Source: Candidatus Iainarchaeum sp.
GTDB lineage: Archaea; Iainarchaeota; Iainarchaeia; Iainarchaeales; 1-14-0-10-31-34
Direction of reading: 5' to 3'
Length of the DNA: 64,000 bases
NCBI GenBank assembly: GCA_040755695.1
Contig: JBFMAK010000001.1
Location: 384,637 to 448,636, forward strand
Part shown: positions 9,321-36,984 of the stretch, one piece after another
Numbering within the stretch: position 1 is the first letter of the stretch
Layout: each line of letters starts with the position of its first letter
The notes under the pieces: generated by a model
Databases searched by the model: none
What the model saw: only the letters and a program-made list of their open reading frames with translations
What the model was told of the DNA's origin: nothing
Position numbers and translations under genes: made by a program

Positions 9321-9502
9321 GGGGTTGTAGTCTAGCCTGGTCAGGACTCTGGCTTTGGGACGGACCCTTTTCTTTTTTAGAAAAAAAGAAAAGTGTTACG
9401 TTATCCCAAAAGAAAAAAGGGGTTAGTTACCCCAAAAAAGAAAGGGATTGTTTTTTGTCCGCAAGAAAGCCAGTAACGGGGGTTCAAATCCTCCCAACCC
9501 CA
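9321..9502 (+). tRNA. tRNA-Pro(TGG) with 108-nt intron at canonical 37/38 position (intron 9360..9467)
   Basis: Acceptor GGGGTTG/CAACCCC+A. D-arm GTCT-AGCCTGGTCA-GGAC. Anticodon stem CTGGC...GCCAG. Loop TT-TGG-G|intron|A. T-arm GGGGG-TTCAAAT-CCTCC. Intron ends are complementary (CGGAC/GTCCG), consistent with a BHB splice motif. Confidence 0.65.
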
Positions 9503-9606: not shown

Positions 9607-9776
9607 GCGGAGGTGGCGGAGTGGTCCAACGCACCAGCTTGGAGCCTGCCCCTTTTTCTTTTTAAAAAAAAGAAAAAGCGGCAAGTTGCCGGAAAAAGAA
9701 AAAGGTTTTGGTGGCCGGATAGCTGGCGAGCGCAAGCTCACGCGAGTTCGAATCTCGTCCTCCGCGTCCGCCCTTT
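9607..9776 (+). tRNA. tRNA-Ser(GGA), class II, with 76-nt intron (9645..9720)
   Basis: Acceptor GCGGAGG/CCTCCGC+G. Anticodon stem CCAGC...GCTGG. Loop TT-GGA-G|intron|A. Long variable arm CGAGCGCAAGCTCAC. T-arm GCGAG-TTCGAAT-CTCGT. The intron contains a palindrome plus mini-repeat copy. Confidence 0.6.
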
Positions 9777-9869
9777 TTCTTTCTTTCCAAAAGAAAGAAA
9801 AAGTGCAGGTTGCCCAAAAAGAAAGAAAGCGGCAAGTTGCCCAAAAGAAAAAAAATAAAGTTGCAGTTG

Positions 9870-10022: not shown

Positions 10023-10266
10023 CTCTGCCCCTTTCTTTCTTTTAAAAAAAGAAAGAAAGTGGTAAGTTGCCCCAAAGAAAGAAAAGAAAAGTGCAGGTTG
10101 CCCAAAAGAAAAATGGTGAAAGTTTACAGTCCATCCAAAAGAGAAAAAGCATAGGTTGCAATTTAATTCCAAAAGGAATTAAATGCACATTAAAACCGAA
10201 AGGTTTTAATCGTACCCCAAAGAAAGAAAATACAATTAAATATAAGTTTCAATTAAGGTTTTAATC

Positions 10267-23632: not shown

Positions 23633-24094
23633 ATGAAAAAGAAATTATTAGGTTTGGTTACTGTTGCAATTATTTTGTTGTTCTTTTCCTCTAAGTTTTA
23701 TGCACTTCTTGATTCAACTGAATCAGAGTTTATAGAATCATTCAAATGTGGCGATGCAAATGGCGATGGCGTGGTGTCAGTAACAGATATTGTTTGGCTG
23801 GTAAATTTTTTGTTTAAGGGCGGCACTGCCCCAGTGGATATGGATGGAGCAGATGCAAATAATGATGGAAAGGTGTCAGTAACAGATATTGTTTGGCTGG
23901 TAAATTTTTTGTTTAAGGGAGGTCCAACCCCAAACTGTGGTCCTGAGCCCCAGCCTAAAATAATTAGTCCTTCAAATTATGAAATAATTGGTGGTCCTGC
24001 TCTGGTTTCTGTGATAGATGACTCAAATCTTTCTCCTTCAAAAATAAAAAAAATGAAGTTAGAATATTCTTATGATAATGTTAATTGGACTTAA
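23633..24094 (+). CDS. secreted protein with two dockerin type-I repeats
   Basis: Signal peptide followed by GDANGDGVVSVTDIVWLVNFLFKGG and ADANNDGKVSVTDIVWLVNFLFKGG (DxNxDGxxxxxD Ca-binding loops). The two repeats are about 95% identical at DNA level. Confidence 0.55.
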   Translation: MKKKLLGLVTVAIILLFFSSKFYALLDSTESEFIESFKCGDANGDGVVSVTDIVWLVNFLFKGGTAPVDMDGADANNDGKVSVTDIVWLVNFLFKGGPTPNCGPEPQPKIISPSNYEIIGGPALVSVIDDSNLSPSKIKKMKLEYSYDNVNWT

Positions 24095-25087
24095 ATAGCA
24101 GAGTATGGTGCCGCAGGAAGCAGTGCCTGGGATACAATATTTGATACTTCAATTATATCTTCTGGTCCTCTTTATGTTAAGACAACAGAATACTCTTATT
24201 CTGGAACAGTGTCCAATACCGTTCAAGTGACAGTAAACAAACTGCCAGTAGCTCACGCTACAACAATGTACAACCCTTATAATAATGAATGGTTTTTTGA
24301 CGCAGGCACTTCATATGATTCTGACGGCTCAATTACAGGCTATGAATGGGATTTTGGCGACGGCAATACAGGCACTGGGTCAATAGCATCACACAAGTAT
24401 TCTCCGCCCGGATTTTATAATGCGAGTTTGACTGTTACTGATGATTTGGGTTTTAATGGAACTTATTTTTTTGTTCCGGGCTACGATGCTAACTGCGGCT
24501 GCAAGAAAATGACAATAAGAAGCACAGGAGAATTTGACAGAAATGATTACAAGTTAGAAAAAACACTTATAAAGAATAATATTTCGTCAGACTATAATAA
24601 GCTTGGTGGCTTTGATGACATTAATTGGCTTGATTCAAAAAAAATATTTTTTATTGGAACCTTTTTTGAGGTTCAAGCAGAACTAACTGATAATACAACT
24701 GACCCAAAGCTCTGCGATGAACGGCAGAAAACAAAAGCTACACGTCATTACAAAAACAAAGACTTTAACTACGAGTTTTTGGGCGTAAAGTGTGGTTTCC
24801 TTTCACCTAATTGGTGTAATGACGATTACATGGAAAAAAATGACACTTACAAGAAAAAGCATTATCCAAAATTAATTAAATGGATTGACGCCCCAGGCAC
24901 TAGATTAAGGAAGGGCGACATGAATGTTGATGGATATACCCACAAATCAAAATTCTGGGCTGTAGTAGAAGGGTCAGCAGGAAAATGCGAGTGCTTTTTT
25001 GAACAAGAAGCAATTTATAATGTAAACGGAATCAAAATCTCAAATACAATAAAAAATTTCAATGGAACAAATTGTTTTGCAGGCTAA
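24095..25087 (+). CDS. PKD-domain protein; in the same frame as the upstream dockerin gene, separated only by one TAA
   Basis: WDFGDGNTGTGSIASHKYSPPGFYNASLTVTDDLG matches the PKD consensus. The frame is open from 24095. The first canonical start is GTG at 24209. Confidence 0.45.
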   Translation: MAEYGAAGSSAWDTIFDTSIISSGPLYVKTTEYSYSGTVSNTVQVTVNKLPVAHATTMYNPYNNEWFFDAGTSYDSDGSITGYEWDFGDGNTGTGSIASHKYSPPGFYNASLTVTDDLGFNGTYFFVPGYDANCGCKKMTIRSTGEFDRNDYKLEKTLIKNNISSDYNKLGGFDDINWLDSKKIFFIGTFFEVQAELTDNTTDPKLCDERQKTKATRHYKNKDFNYEFLGVKCGFLSPNWCNDDYMEKNDTYKKKHYPKLIKWIDAPGTRLRKGDMNVDGYTHKSKFWAVVEGSAGKCECFFEQEAIYNVNGIKISNTIKNFNGTNCFAG

Positions 25088-28684: not shown

Positions 28685-28733
28685 ATAACCGCCCTAATTA
28701 CTAAATTGAAAAAAGAAAAGTAATTTATAGTTA

Positions 28734-29196
28734 ATGCAAAGAACAGTTTTTATGAGATTATACCTTGACTCTAATGTGCTGATTTCTTATCTGCGAAGCG
28801 AAATAGACAAAGCATTTAATGTGAGGTTTCAGTCAAGTGAAAAATTTTTTGCTGCATGCGGCCTGCTTAAAACTGAGTTAGTTATTTCACAACTTTTTCT
28901 GGTTGAAATAAAGAAAAAAGTGTTTTCAGAGGAAAAAGGTATTAAACAATTATTTGAAGATTTTGGAATAAAAACAACTATAATAAATAATGTTGAAAAA
29001 GATAAAGTTCTAAAAATAATGAAAGAAACCGAAATACATTTTGCGGATGCAACACATATCGCAAATGCGGTAGAGTACAACTGTGAGTATATTAGTACAA
29101 CTGTGAGTATATTATAACATGGAACAAGAAAGACTTTGAAAAAGCAGGAAAAATAATTCCTTGCAAAAACCCGGAAGAGTTTATACAAGGCTTCTA
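28734..29196 (+). pseudogene. vapC: PIN-domain toxin (VapC-like) truncated by a 20-nt tandem duplication
   Basis: N-terminal LYLDSNVLISYL and HFADATHIANA motifs. The unit gtacaactgtgagtatatta occurs twice in tandem (29075..29094 and 29095..29114). The current ORF stops at 29117 as ...EYISTTVSIL. Removing one copy restores ...EYIITWNKKDFEKAGKIIPCKNPEEFIQGF with the stop at 29196. Confidence 0.6.
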
Positions 29197-29477
29197 GCTA
29201 ATTCATCCTTTTCTTTTGCAGTAAGTTCTTTGATTTTCAAACCTTTGAGATTATGCTTTTCTACAAATTTTCTGAGTATTGCTCTATTCTTTTTTATTTC
29301 TTCTTCAAAATCGAGTTTGCTTAAGACACCCTTTAAAGGCCTGACTTCCAAATGGTCCTTAAATGCAAGCAAAGCAACTTTTTGGCCGCTGTGAAAGCCT
29401 TCACTAGCCCTTAATTCGCTTGGGATTACTATTTGCCCTTTCAAAGTAATTGTTGATGTTCTAATTCCATTCAACAT
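29181..29477 (-). CDS. AbrB/SpoVT-family (swapped-hairpin) DNA-binding protein, antitoxin-like
   Basis: TITLKGQIVIPSELR motif. 98 aa. Confidence 0.45.
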   Translation of the reverse strand: MLNGIRTSTITLKGQIVIPSELRASEGFHSGQKVALLAFKDHLEVRPLKGVLSKLDFEEEIKKNRAILRKFVEKHNLKGLKIKELTAKEKDELARSLV

Positions 29478-29797
29478 AACAAAACCTTAGTATTACAAGT
29501 AATACAAGTAAGAAAACATATTTAAATATAATTATGCTGAAAGCAATAGAAATTATAGGGAATTAGGAGGAAAGAATGTTGGACATTCTTTCCCCAATTC
29601 TAAGAGAGTTGGTTGAACTTAGAATAGAATCGGGATAGGCTCACCTTAAACTAAGTTCAATGCTTATATAATTGTTGCTTAAGAAATATATAAATATATC
29701 GCGATTTTTAAGGCTTCTGACGATTTTCTTCGCTGTTGGTTCTACATAATTAGGTTTTGTTTTTATTGTTTTTCAAAGTAATTTTTTATTGATTTGG

Positions 29798-34437: not shown

Positions 34438-35820
34438 ATGCTACCACAATTTGTAAATAGAGAAGAAGAATTAAAATTTCTAGAAAGGCTTCATAAGAAA
34501 AGAGGCTTCAAACTATTTGTCCTTTATGGGAGAAGAAGAATTGGAAAAACGGACTTATTAAAACATTTTTTGGAGAACAAAAAAGGGGTTTATATTCTTG
34601 CCACAGAAGAAAATTTGACGGAGAATATAAAAGAATTCAAAAACAAATTTTACGAGTTGACAGGCAAGGATTATTTTCTGAAAATTGAAGAAAAAAGCTT
34701 CTATGATTTGTTCAAGTATTTAGCAGAGGAAATTAAAAACAAGAAGGCTGTTATAGTTATAGACGAATTCCCTTATATGCTAAATTTAAATAAAGGCTTG
34801 CTTTCGACATTTCAGAAAATCACAGATGAATTATTCAGAAACAGCGAGATAATGTTAGTCTTGTGCGGTTCTTCTTTATCGATAATGGAAAATGATGTTT
34901 TGGGTTACAGGAGCCCTCTTTATGGGAGGGATATTAATTACTGGAAGCTTCTGCCTTTTGATTTCAGGGTAGTTTATGATTTAGTTGGCAGAATAGAAAA
35001 GGCCATGAAGGTTTATTTCGTTTTTGGAAATGTTCCATATTACCTTAAGTTCTACAACAAAAAAGAAGATTTGTTTGGGAACATAAAAAATAATTTTTTG
35101 GTAAAGGGATTAAATTTGTATGATGAGCCTTTAGTCCTGCTAAGACAAGAGTTTAAGGAGTCTAGGACATACAGGCTGATTTTGAAATACATCTCTTTAG
35201 GATATAAGACTATAGGCAAGTTATGTTCTGTTACAGGAATGGATAAAAGCAATATTATGAAATATCTTTCGACCCTTGAAGAAACAAATATTATAAAGCA
35301 CATTCTACCTTTCGGCATGAAGAGAAAAGGCTATTATGAGATTATTGATCCTTTCTTTAGGTTTTGGTTTAAGTTTGTTTATCCAAATAAAGACAAGCTT
35401 GAAATAGGGAATATTAAAGACGTTGAAGAACCCATAAAGAAAGAGATAAATTCTATTTTTGGGATATCTTTTGAATACTTAATTGAAGATTTAATCAATC
35501 ATAAATTTTTTGTAGAGTTTTCTGTGTTTTCAAAGGTTTATAAATGGTGGCATAAAGACATAGAAATTGACATTATTGCTCTAAATGAGCAAAGCAAAGA
35601 AATAATTTTTGTGGAATGCAAATGGCAGGAAAAAGTTAATGCGGAAAAGATTGTAAAAGAATTGGCTGAAAAGTCAATGCATGTTAACTGGCATAACAAT
35701 GAAAGAAAGGAATGCTATGCAGTATTTGCAAAAAGCTTCAGTAAAAAAATCAGAAATCATGAAAACAAAAAAGTTTATTGCTTTGGCTTAAAGGACATTG
35801 AAAGGATTCTCAAGAGATAG
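34438..35820 (+). CDS. archaeal ATPase family protein (PF01637-like AAA + DUF234)
   Basis: FVNREEELKFLE...LYGRRRIGKTDLLKHF (Walker A). DExx box VIVIDEFPYM. Confidence 0.55.
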   Translation: MLPQFVNREEELKFLERLHKKRGFKLFVLYGRRRIGKTDLLKHFLENKKGVYILATEENLTENIKEFKNKFYELTGKDYFLKIEEKSFYDLFKYLAEEIKNKKAVIVIDEFPYMLNLNKGLLSTFQKITDELFRNSEIMLVLCGSSLSIMENDVLGYRSPLYGRDINYWKLLPFDFRVVYDLVGRIEKAMKVYFVFGNVPYYLKFYNKKEDLFGNIKNNFLVKGLNLYDEPLVLLRQEFKESRTYRLILKYISLGYKTIGKLCSVTGMDKSNIMKYLSTLEETNIIKHILPFGMKRKGYYEIIDPFFRFWFKFVYPNKDKLEIGNIKDVEEPIKKEINSIFGISFEYLIEDLINHKFFVEFSVFSKVYKWWHKDIEIDIIALNEQSKEIIFVECKWQEKVNAEKIVKELAEKSMHVNWHNNERKECYAVFAKSFSKKIRNHENKKVYCFGLKDIERILKR

Positions 35821-35842
35821 GAAAGCCGCCTTTCTAATTCTT

Positions 35843-36280
35843 TTAATTTTTCGGGTATAAAACTAATAGATATGCGCTTGAACCCAGAACATTGTTGAAC
35901 CAAGCAAACATTAAATCGTCTTCTTTAATTTTATGATGCTTTCCGTCTTTCGGGTCATTATACCAGAACCTTCCTTTCTCGTGTTTTTTCAGGAATTTTA
36001 TTATGTCAAACTTTGCAGGCTTCCTGATTTCTGCTTTTCCTTTTGCTAGTTTTTTATTGTAAGAATAACATTCTACTCTGAATCCTAAACTTCGAGCAAA
36101 ATCAGCCAGCTTTATTGTTCTAATGCCATAACTCTTGATGCCCCCAATTTTTCTAATGATTTCACTTGAAGAAACATCCTTGCCAAAATACTGGAGAACC
36201 ATCCTTAAAGCAGTAACCCCACAAGTCAATTTATCCTGTTTTAATAAAGGAACAGAAAGCTTTCTCATAAAATTTCTCAT
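35843..36280 (-). CDS. hypothetical protein, possible papain-like/C39-like peptidase domain
   Basis: LKQDKLTCGVTALRMVLQYFG resembles the Q...CG...L catalytic segment of C39 peptidases, with a later His. Weak. Confidence 0.3.
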   Translation of the reverse strand: MRNFMRKLSVPLLKQDKLTCGVTALRMVLQYFGKDVSSSEIIRKIGGIKSYGIRTIKLADFARSLGFRVECYSYNKKLAKGKAEIRKPAKFDIIKFLKKHEKGRFWYNDPKDGKHHKIKEDDLMFAWFNNVLGSSAYLLVLYPKN

Positions 36281-36288
36281 CTTACAAT

Positions 36289-36984
36289 TTAAACTGGTTT
36301 ATAACCCAAAATCTTTTTTGCTTTGGAGAGGTCTGCATCTTTTGATGCATCTAAAATTGTGAATGATTCGTACCATAATTTTTTGTTTGTTGTTATTGAT
36401 GCTTCAATGGCTTGCAGTACATTTTCTATTTTTACTTGAATTCCCAGAAATGGCTTGTATTCTCCCCTCTTCCTTGTAGGGCCAATCCTTAGAATTATTA
36501 CCTCAAATTTTTTCATCATACCGTAATTTGCAAGAATCTGTTCCGCAATAACCTTGCTCGTTGAATAAGCAATATCACAGTCCCTGCAATTCAAGTCTTC
36601 GGCTTTAACGTGCTGGGTTACAATTGGGTTTGATTCCTTTATTGGCTTCACGAAAGGGATTCCTTTTTCTATGCCATAATAAGTCGTTGAACTCGTAAAA
36701 ATTAAGCGTTTTATTTTATTTTCCAATGCAGCTTGGGCAACATTAAATGTTCCTTGGCAGTTCACCTGAAAATAATCAGAAAAGGTTTTATCTTCAAATG
36801 GACCCCTTATTGCCGCAAGATGTACAACAATATCACAGCCTTTCATTACCTCATTTAATTCATTATGATTTAAAATGTCTTTTCCTTCAGCCAAATCATA
36901 TTTTACGATTTCATGCTTTCCAGACAAATGATTGACTAATTCGCTTCCAATGAAGCCAGAACTTCCAGTTATAAGGATTTTCAT
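36289..36984 (-). CDS. NAD-dependent epimerase/dehydratase (extended SDR)
   Basis: ILITGSSGFIGSEL Rossmann motif and YSTSK (YxxxK). Confidence 0.65.
   Translation of the reverse strand: MKILITGSSGFIGSELVNHLSGKHEIVKYDLAEGKDILNHNELNEVMKGCDIVVHLAAIRGPFEDKTFSDYFQVNCQGTFNVAQAALENKIKRLIFTSSTTYYGIEKGIPFVKPIKESNPIVTQHVKAEDLNCRDCDIAYSTSKVIAEQILANYGMMKKFEVIILRIGPTRKRGEYKPFLGIQVKIENVLQAIEASITTNKKLWYESFTILDASKDADLSKAKKILGYKPV

Follow-up and report, generated by a model that had tools for sequence, protein, structure and literature searches.

A VapC-like PIN gene probably disrupted by a young 20-nt tandem duplication beside an intact convergent AbrB-type gene in a Candidatus Diapherotrites archaeon

VapBC modules, the toxin-antitoxin (TA) systems to which the locus analyzed here can best be compared, are co-directional operons in which the antitoxin gene usually comes first. 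They combine a PIN-domain toxin, VapC, with an antitoxin, VapB, of AbrB/SpoVT, RHH, PHD/YefM or HTH type. Tail-to-tail genes with overlapping 3′ ends are found in type I TA systems, such as txpA/RatA and yonT/SR6 of B. subtilis, whose antitoxins are antisense RNAs. In the searchable literature, convergent TA layouts concern only such type I (RNA antitoxin) systems, an absence that is in itself no proof of novelty. Chromosomal TA modules may decay toxin first, by small indels or point mutations that frameshift the toxin gene beside an intact antitoxin gene. The present work deals with a 64-kb window (the whole stretch of DNA that was analyzed) from a MAG of Candidatus Diapherotrites (Iainarchaeia, DPANN). 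It reveals a VapC-like PIN gene (28752-29196) that has probably been knocked out by a young 20-nt duplication and, opposite to it, an intact gene encoding an AbrB-type protein (Table 1). This locus is a variant of the VapBC theme and no standard member of it, because its convergent, 3′-overlapping layout with a modular AbrB/RHH partner is conserved.

Table 1. Coordinates of the features of the PIN/partner locus in the window
Feature	Position	Strand	Description or evidence
PIN promoter region (putative)	28696..28729	+	inverted repeat AATTACT/AGTAATT (28696-28702, 28719-28725) overlapping TATA-like TTTATA (28724-28729)
Truncated PIN (VapC-like) CDS	28752..29117	+	121 aa, identical to NCBI MEW6295130.1; PF01850 match
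GTACAACTGTGAGTATATTA copy 1	29075..29094	+	sequence inspection, repeat search
GTACAACTGTGAGTATATTA copy 2	29095..29114	+	extra 20 nt relative to ortholog L001 (20-nt alignment gap)
Orphaned PIN remnant	29115..29196	+	27 codons ITWNKKDFEKAGKIIPCKNPEEFIQGF and TAG, out of frame; holds TWNKKDF with D121
Partner gene (presumed antitoxin)	29181..29477	-	98 aa, intact; AbrB/SpoVT-type N-domain; C-terminal tail ...ELTAKEKDELARSLV; NCBI MEW6295131.1
Operator-like repeats (putative)	29489..29512	-	directly before the start codon of the partner; 9-nt period

A first-pass annotation of this DNA had described a perfect 20-nt tandem inside the PIN gene, and both copies of the unit GTACAACTGTGAGTATATTA were indeed found, adjacent and 100% identical, at exactly the positions that it gave. 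Tandem Repeats Finder reports the segment 29074-29114 (period 20, 100% matches, score 82) as the best perfect repeat of the window. Identity at this period extends over 21 nt, the A at 29074 being also the last base of the unit, and the microhomology at the junction of the duplication amounts to 1 nt (this single A). No further occurrence of GTACAACTGTGAGTATATTA was found on either strand of the whole 64-kb window, and no other perfect tandem duplication whose unit reaches 12 nt exists in these 64 kb. Given the composition, about 2e-7 perfect 20+20 tandems are expected by chance, and the duplication cannot be attributed to chance. Which of the two copies is the newer one cannot be told, and Table 1 lists the second copy as the extra 20 nt relative to the ortholog. 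A transposon footprint or a target-site duplication was rejected, since there are neither mobile-element remnants nor terminal inverted repeats nearby and the gap in the alignment with the ortholog is a clean 20 nt. A duplication driven by a hairpin was also rejected, as no significant inverted repeat lies within the unit.

The consequences on the reading frame are those announced by the first-pass annotation. The open reading frame 28734-29117 ends in ...AVEYNCEYISTTVSIL, that is in ...EYISTTVSIL, with its stop codon at 29115-29117. In silico deletion of one GTACAACTGTGAGTATATTA copy yields ...AVEYNCEYIITWNKKDFEKAGKIIPCKNPEEFIQGF (...EYIITWNKKDFEKAGKIIPCKNPEEFIQGF) and restores a canonical PIN C-terminus up to a TAG at 29194-29196. 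Since 20 is not a multiple of three, translation would depart from the original frame after Ile114, read seven foreign residues (STTVSIL) and stop, and the remaining 27 PIN codons would go untranslated. A programmed frameshift or an internal restart was rejected, since the C-terminal frame contains a TGA and a TAG within and at the end of copy 1 and no slippery motif occurs in the shift window; furthermore, the C-terminal frame of the PIN remnant does not include any start codon.

If the coordinates of this open reading frame hold, the use of position 28734 as the start of the gene probably does not. The start is most likely the ATG at 28752 (MRLYLD...), 18 nt downstream, because all homologs begin there (with the shared N-terminus M(R/K)xYLDSNV), NCBI lists a protein of 121 aa and, in the ortholog, a 1-nt indel seen in the DNA alignment puts the upstream ATG into another frame. 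The six additional residues that a start at 28734 would give are probably not translated. NCBI entitles MEW6295130.1 (28752-29117), which is located on a 581-kb contig, ‘MAG: PIN domain-containing protein [Candidatus Diapherotrites archaeon]’, so that the frameshifted 121-aa fragment is publicly listed as an ordinary PIN protein, with no pseudogene flag. This entry deserves either a flag as frameshifted pseudogene or a check of the reads. The TATA-like box of the putative promoter is located about 23 nt upstream of ATG 28752, a spacing that suggests a leaderless PIN mRNA, and the promoter region of the ortholog is identical except for one indel. No motif common to the PIN promoters was seen across the loci. 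A scan for bacterial promoters and terminators gave nothing useful, its models being bacterial and the host an archaeon.

The closest ortholog of the PIN protein (P0002; 141 aa, 78% identical) is encoded by an 87-kb contig that was assembled independently by ENA (L001) and JGI (L043). The gene order is the same in the window and in these two assemblies: M50 peptidase, MBF1-like HTH protein, PIN, convergent 98-aa gene and FEN1. A comparison with the orthologous locus, one of the checks advised by the first-pass annotation, shows full synteny, a 141-aa PIN protein and a single copy of GTACAACTGTGAGTATATTA, the gap in the DNA alignment being exactly 20 nt long. The single copy in the ortholog indicates that the ancestral state is single-copy and that the lesion of the window is of insertion type. 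Two segments of the window are missing from the syntenic ortholog contig and appear to be strain-variable accessory genes: 23633-25087, encoding dockerin-repeat and PKD-like secreted proteins, and 34438-36984, encoding an archaeal-type ATPase, a small protein and an NAD-dependent epimerase-like protein.

The synonymous divergence between the window and the ortholog ranges from 0.34 to 0.64. The dN/dS ratios are 0.07 for the M50 peptidase, 0.14 for the MBF1-like protein, 0.12 for the 98-aa partner and 0.07 for FEN1, compared to 0.24 for the whole PIN gene. The excess of the latter is limited to residues 33-88 (0.50), which are variable family-wide, residues 1-32 having a ratio of 0.02. Residues 89-141, whose codons include those put out of frame by the duplication, are still conserved, with a dN/dS of 0.075, a value that is based on few sites, 16 nt of the PIN tail being also constrained by the overlapping partner gene. 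A relative-rate test with ten outgroups gave 13 substitutions specific to the window versus 13 specific to the ortholog. Among 20 orthologous genes compared over about 16 kb, the PIN gene is the only one whose frame is broken. Because of the low ratio of the tail, the equal rates and this single frame break, the PIN gene is, as far as its sequence can tell, one that was under purifying selection until very recently, with a lesion that would be either young or not real. A long-standing pseudogene is ruled out by the dN/dS of the tail and by the relative rates. The first-pass annotation had spoken of a recent slippage event: the adjective is supported by these data, but slippage is not established, given the microhomology of 1 nt. 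The most likely origin of the duplication would be a replication error, by template switch or by slippage, this microhomology being weak for classic slippage, and the lack of visible secondary decay would make the event a young one. The loss may have been favoured because it neutralises the toxin, as the first-pass annotation proposed, or it may have arisen by neutral drift.

The fast-evolving part of the PIN gene (28848-29015, residues 33-88) is an observation in its own right. Its dN/dS suggests a fast-evolving surface, possibly a region involved in substrate or partner specificity.

A lesion without any decay around it could also be an artefact of assembly or curation, in which overlapping pieces were joined untrimmed or a duplicate was introduced by gap closing or polishing, the gene being intact in the organism. 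We consider this explanation unlikely. The absence of divergence between the two copies and the fully functional appearance of the out-of-frame codons would fit with it, as would the fact that the truncated protein is found in one NCBI record alone, no independent assembly reproducing the duplication. The length of the unit deserves attention too: 20 nt correspond to k-1 at k=21, the lowest k-mer size that common assemblers use by default, and an untrimmed graph join would look identical. However, the neighbourhood is clean, with a lone broken frame, and no second duplication of this kind was found within the 64 kb. Related MAGs obtained in other studies with other assemblers contain short tandem duplications, also perfect, about as often per kilobase (eight in 334 kb), and one of the related loci (L010) carries an apparently genuine 15-nt in-frame duplication inside a 557-codon ORF. 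Furthermore, the PIN family has been broken repeatedly elsewhere. A generally error-prone assembly was rejected, as 19 of the 20 orthologous genes, all but PIN, are frame-intact.

Other copies of the locus itself were searched in several ways. Exact-protein look-ups with the truncated PIN, the partner, the MBF1-like protein and the M50 peptidase led to no other contig. A scan of metagenome contigs for the junction pattern, allowing one or two copies of GTACAACTGTGAGTATATTA, gave no match. Protein-based scans of GTDB representative genomes and JGI metagenomes retrieved just the 78% identical ortholog and remoter relatives, the strain itself being absent from both collections, and no intact allele of the PIN protein of the window was found among 5.8 billion protein clusters.

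A real and young duplication, which we regard as the probable explanation, would have deprived the PIN protein of an essential part of its fold. The VapC-like identity put forward for this protein by the first-pass annotation is supported by both profile and structural comparisons. With PF01850 (PIN; cutoff 23.6), the truncated protein scores 29.5 bits and the restored one 31.9 bits, the latter reaching position 118 of the 120 positions of the profile. With PF13470 (PIN_3; cutoff 27), the comparison with and without the duplication is more discriminating: the truncated protein falls below the cutoff (21.0 bits), whereas the restored one scores 31.7 bits over the full profile (1-115/115). No solved structure was found to be related to the family in a sequence-profile search of the PDB, and the protein is not recognized by NCBIfam or PADLOC models. 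An AlphaFold2 model was built for the intact ortholog P0002, not for the truncated product, using 22 family sequences (pLDDT 91.2, pTM 0.85). When this model was compared with the PDB by Foldseek, the best matches came from solved VapBC complexes, as VapC chains (5x3t_B, E 7.7e-6, followed by 7by3_B, 7vwo_A, 4chg_A and 6a7v) and archaeal PIN proteins (2fe1, 1y82). Housekeeping PIN proteins (HARP/RNase P, Nob1/Fcf1-like) were rejected, since they are longer proteins giving weaker structural matches only and the family is multi-copy and non-syntenic.

Among the 5.8 billion protein clusters, 23 family members were found, including the truncated protein of the window (P0001; 121 aa, from Met7). 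The other 22 are mostly 137-148 aa long, one reaching 181 aa. D6, E52 and D99 are invariant in the family and D121 is near-invariant. Among the 22 relatives, conservation reaches at least 90% at T116, W117, N118, K120, D121 and F122, and the near-invariant TWNKKDF motif, kept by all of them, is exactly what the frameshift deletes. We take D121 to be the fourth active-site acid because of its place in this motif. The restored sequence has the four acidic residues; the actual product lacks D121 and carries a foreign tail after I114. According to the model of P0002, the frameshift falls inside strand beta4 (residues 113-115) and deletes helix 119-125, strand 131-132 and helix 134-139. The product would thus lack the end of beta4, the motif and all that is C-terminal to it, and would be, as judged from this model, catalytically dead and probably misfolded. 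The claim of a truncating and inactivating lesion therefore agrees with the loss of TWNKKDF and D121 and with the drop of the PIN_3 score.

It is very unlikely that the 121-aa protein is still useful, with a function that would be changed rather than lost, by titrating the partner or by acting as a regulatory or dominant-negative subunit. It does keep residues 1-114 with D6, E52 and D99, its Pfam PIN score passes the cutoff and NCBI annotates it as a protein; however, the cut interrupts a beta strand of the core and costs the compact single-domain fold two helices and one strand, and no relative as short as 121 aa was found among the 22 homologs and 46 loci. The position of the cut in the fold makes a residual function improbable, and the loss of the PIN protein through a young duplication is still the reading that we prefer.

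The convergent gene would have stayed intact through this event. It was described by the first-pass annotation as an AbrB-type gene located right at the restored PIN stop, and it is encoded by the opposite strand, shares 16 nt with the restored PIN frame and scores above the cutoff of the AbrB model TIGR01439 (31 bits for a cutoff of 28.3). With PF04014, its score is just under the cutoff (21.7 bits for 24.7), and NCBI names the protein as a member of the AbrB/MazE/SpoVT family. Its C-terminal tail ELTAKEKDELARSLV is common to this AbrB-type partner and to the RHH-type partners of paralogs. Upstream of the partner gene, a palindrome (GTATTAC-AA-GTAATAC, 29490-29505) is included in the 9-nt-period repeats, and a TATA-like sequence, TATTTAAATA, is found at about 29519-29528. 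The repeats, (G/T)ATTAC-TTGTA, are kept in five non-syntenic loci with AbrB-type partners (L002, L003, L004, L044 and L050), a distribution that fits with a putative autoregulatory operator of the partner gene. They are placed between a TATA-like box and the first codon of the partner, at about 4715-4760 in L002, 4735-4775 in L003, 4720-4750 in L004 and 4715-4746 in L044.

The spacer between the partner gene and FEN1 (29478-29788) is 96% identical to that of the ortholog, the dS of the flanking genes being 0.4-0.6. It includes a segment (29548-29672) with two stable hairpins, the MFE being -36 kcal/mol (z = -3.7) for the + strand and -31.8 kcal/mol (z = -4.5) for the - strand. In the ortholog, its 11-bp stem at 29569-29593 shows a compensatory T-A to A-T change and an altered loop. 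A 20-codon ORF (29577-29639) preceded by AGGAGG is not conserved. The hairpin region has no Rfam match and is a candidate small structured RNA. Elsewhere in the window, Rfam detects a tRNA spanning 160 nt (9607-9766, + strand) that was not reported by ARAGORN, presumably because of an intron. Imperfect A-rich tandem repeats of 26-31 nt with GTGCAAGTTGC flank this tRNA (9383-9446, 9787-9855 and 10044-10111).

The VapC-like family is largely confined to Iainarchaeia/Diapherotrites. It is multi-copy per genome in Iainarchaeia MAGs, and its members are non-syntenic with the sole exception of the ortholog. Of the 46 related loci, 41 come from GTDB genomes and the others from metagenomes, and in all 46 a convergent partner follows the PIN gene. 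The partners are 77-123 aa long and the median 3′ overlap with PIN is 20 nt (range -50 to +59) in these 46 loci; the loci that were examined did not show any conserved small gene upstream of PIN in the same direction. Of 41 partners, 32 match RHH_1 and seven MazE/AbrB. The N-terminus of the partner is of AbrB type in the closest subfamily and of ribbon-helix-helix type in remoter paralogs, both types sharing a C-terminal tail with the consensus L(S/T)xxE(K/R)DxLAxx(Y/F)L. Because the family is multi-copy, non-syntenic and always paired with a small AbrB/RHH protein, the pair has, gene orientation excepted, the hallmarks of a type II TA system with a modular antitoxin. By family resemblance, the intact PIN protein would be toxic and would be neutralized by the partner.

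Among about 48 copies of the family, PIN is broken and the partner intact in four, both are broken in one and the partner alone is broken in none, a tally of small numbers to which MAG errors may contribute. Broken PIN genes beside intact partners are what is expected of a TA pair, since a toxin can be lost safely but an antitoxin cannot. In L037 (4001-4410), L041 (4001-4404) and L050 (1642-2060), PIN is broken by simple frame switches and the partner is intact. In the second copy of L015 (262-1007), PIN and partner are both split between frames. A tandem duplication is the lesion in the window only, all the other broken copies resulting from simple frame switches.

Taken as a whole, the conserved layout could correspond to an undescribed VapBC-like class of Iainarchaeia, in which a toxin and a modular AbrB/RHH antitoxin would be arranged tail-to-tail, with a shared tail, and would be controlled from two separate promoters, possibly with antisense pairing between the ends of both transcripts, instead of from a single autoregulated operon; we put this forward tentatively, as a possible but rather doubtful generalization. 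Within such a class, the 20-nt duplication would, with the same reserve, be a natural toxin knock-out. The most extreme version, in which the duplication would be a slippage-revertible off-switch maintained as a standing on/off polymorphism, the loss of one copy restoring the toxin and the population toggling between both states, is highly improbable: excision of either copy does give back the ancestral frame exactly, and neither the codons downstream nor the partner gene have suffered damage, but nothing points to heterogeneity, no other family member shows a repeat-based lesion or a duplication at this site, and a merely recent mutation accounts for the same facts.

As a recent mutation, the lesion alone is a textbook case of ordinary loss of function. 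The conserved convergent, 3′-overlapping association of a PIN gene with a modular AbrB/RHH partner is a more interesting result. Tools that search for TA systems would miss such modules, since they generally expect co-directional pairs. Should the pair work as a TA system, operon coupling would be dispensable, and the window would provide a natural toxin-null allele for comparison.

The comparison with known systems brings out both resemblances and differences. Like VapC toxins, the members of the family are single-domain PIN proteins of about 140 aa with a D-E-D-D acidic set, and the best structural matches of the ortholog model belong to solved VapBC complexes. Furthermore, as in VapBC, an adjoining small partner combines an AbrB or RHH DNA-binding N-domain with a C-terminal tail, the family is multi-copy and patchy over genomes, and putative operator-like repeats are located in the promoter of the partner of the window. 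However, in all 46 loci the two genes face each other and overlap at their 3′ ends instead of forming a co-directional operon with the antitoxin first, and the PIN family has no sequence-level match to solved VapC, NCBIfam or PADLOC models. The RHH-type partners of the paralogs resemble the ParD/CopG ‘addiction module antidotes’ (5ceg, 8c24): they align with 5ceg over positions 3-84, that is, over the RHH domain and its helical C-terminal extension almost end to end, with weak E-values (1e-4 to 1e-3). In contrast, the partner of the window itself is of AbrB and not RHH type, and its cognate is a PIN protein, not ParE. Type I TA systems have in common with this locus their tail-to-tail organization and overlapping 3′ ends but use an antisense RNA as antitoxin, whereas the partner is here a 98-aa protein with a DNA-binding-type domain; an antisense effect of the 3′ overlap (about 16-60 nt) of the PIN/partner pair is speculation. 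Finally, a frameshifted toxin gene beside an intact antitoxin-like gene, in the window as in L037, L041 and L050, is reminiscent of the toxin-first decay of chromosomal TA modules, from which the window differs by a lesion that is a perfect 20-nt tandem duplication instead of a small indel or point mutation.
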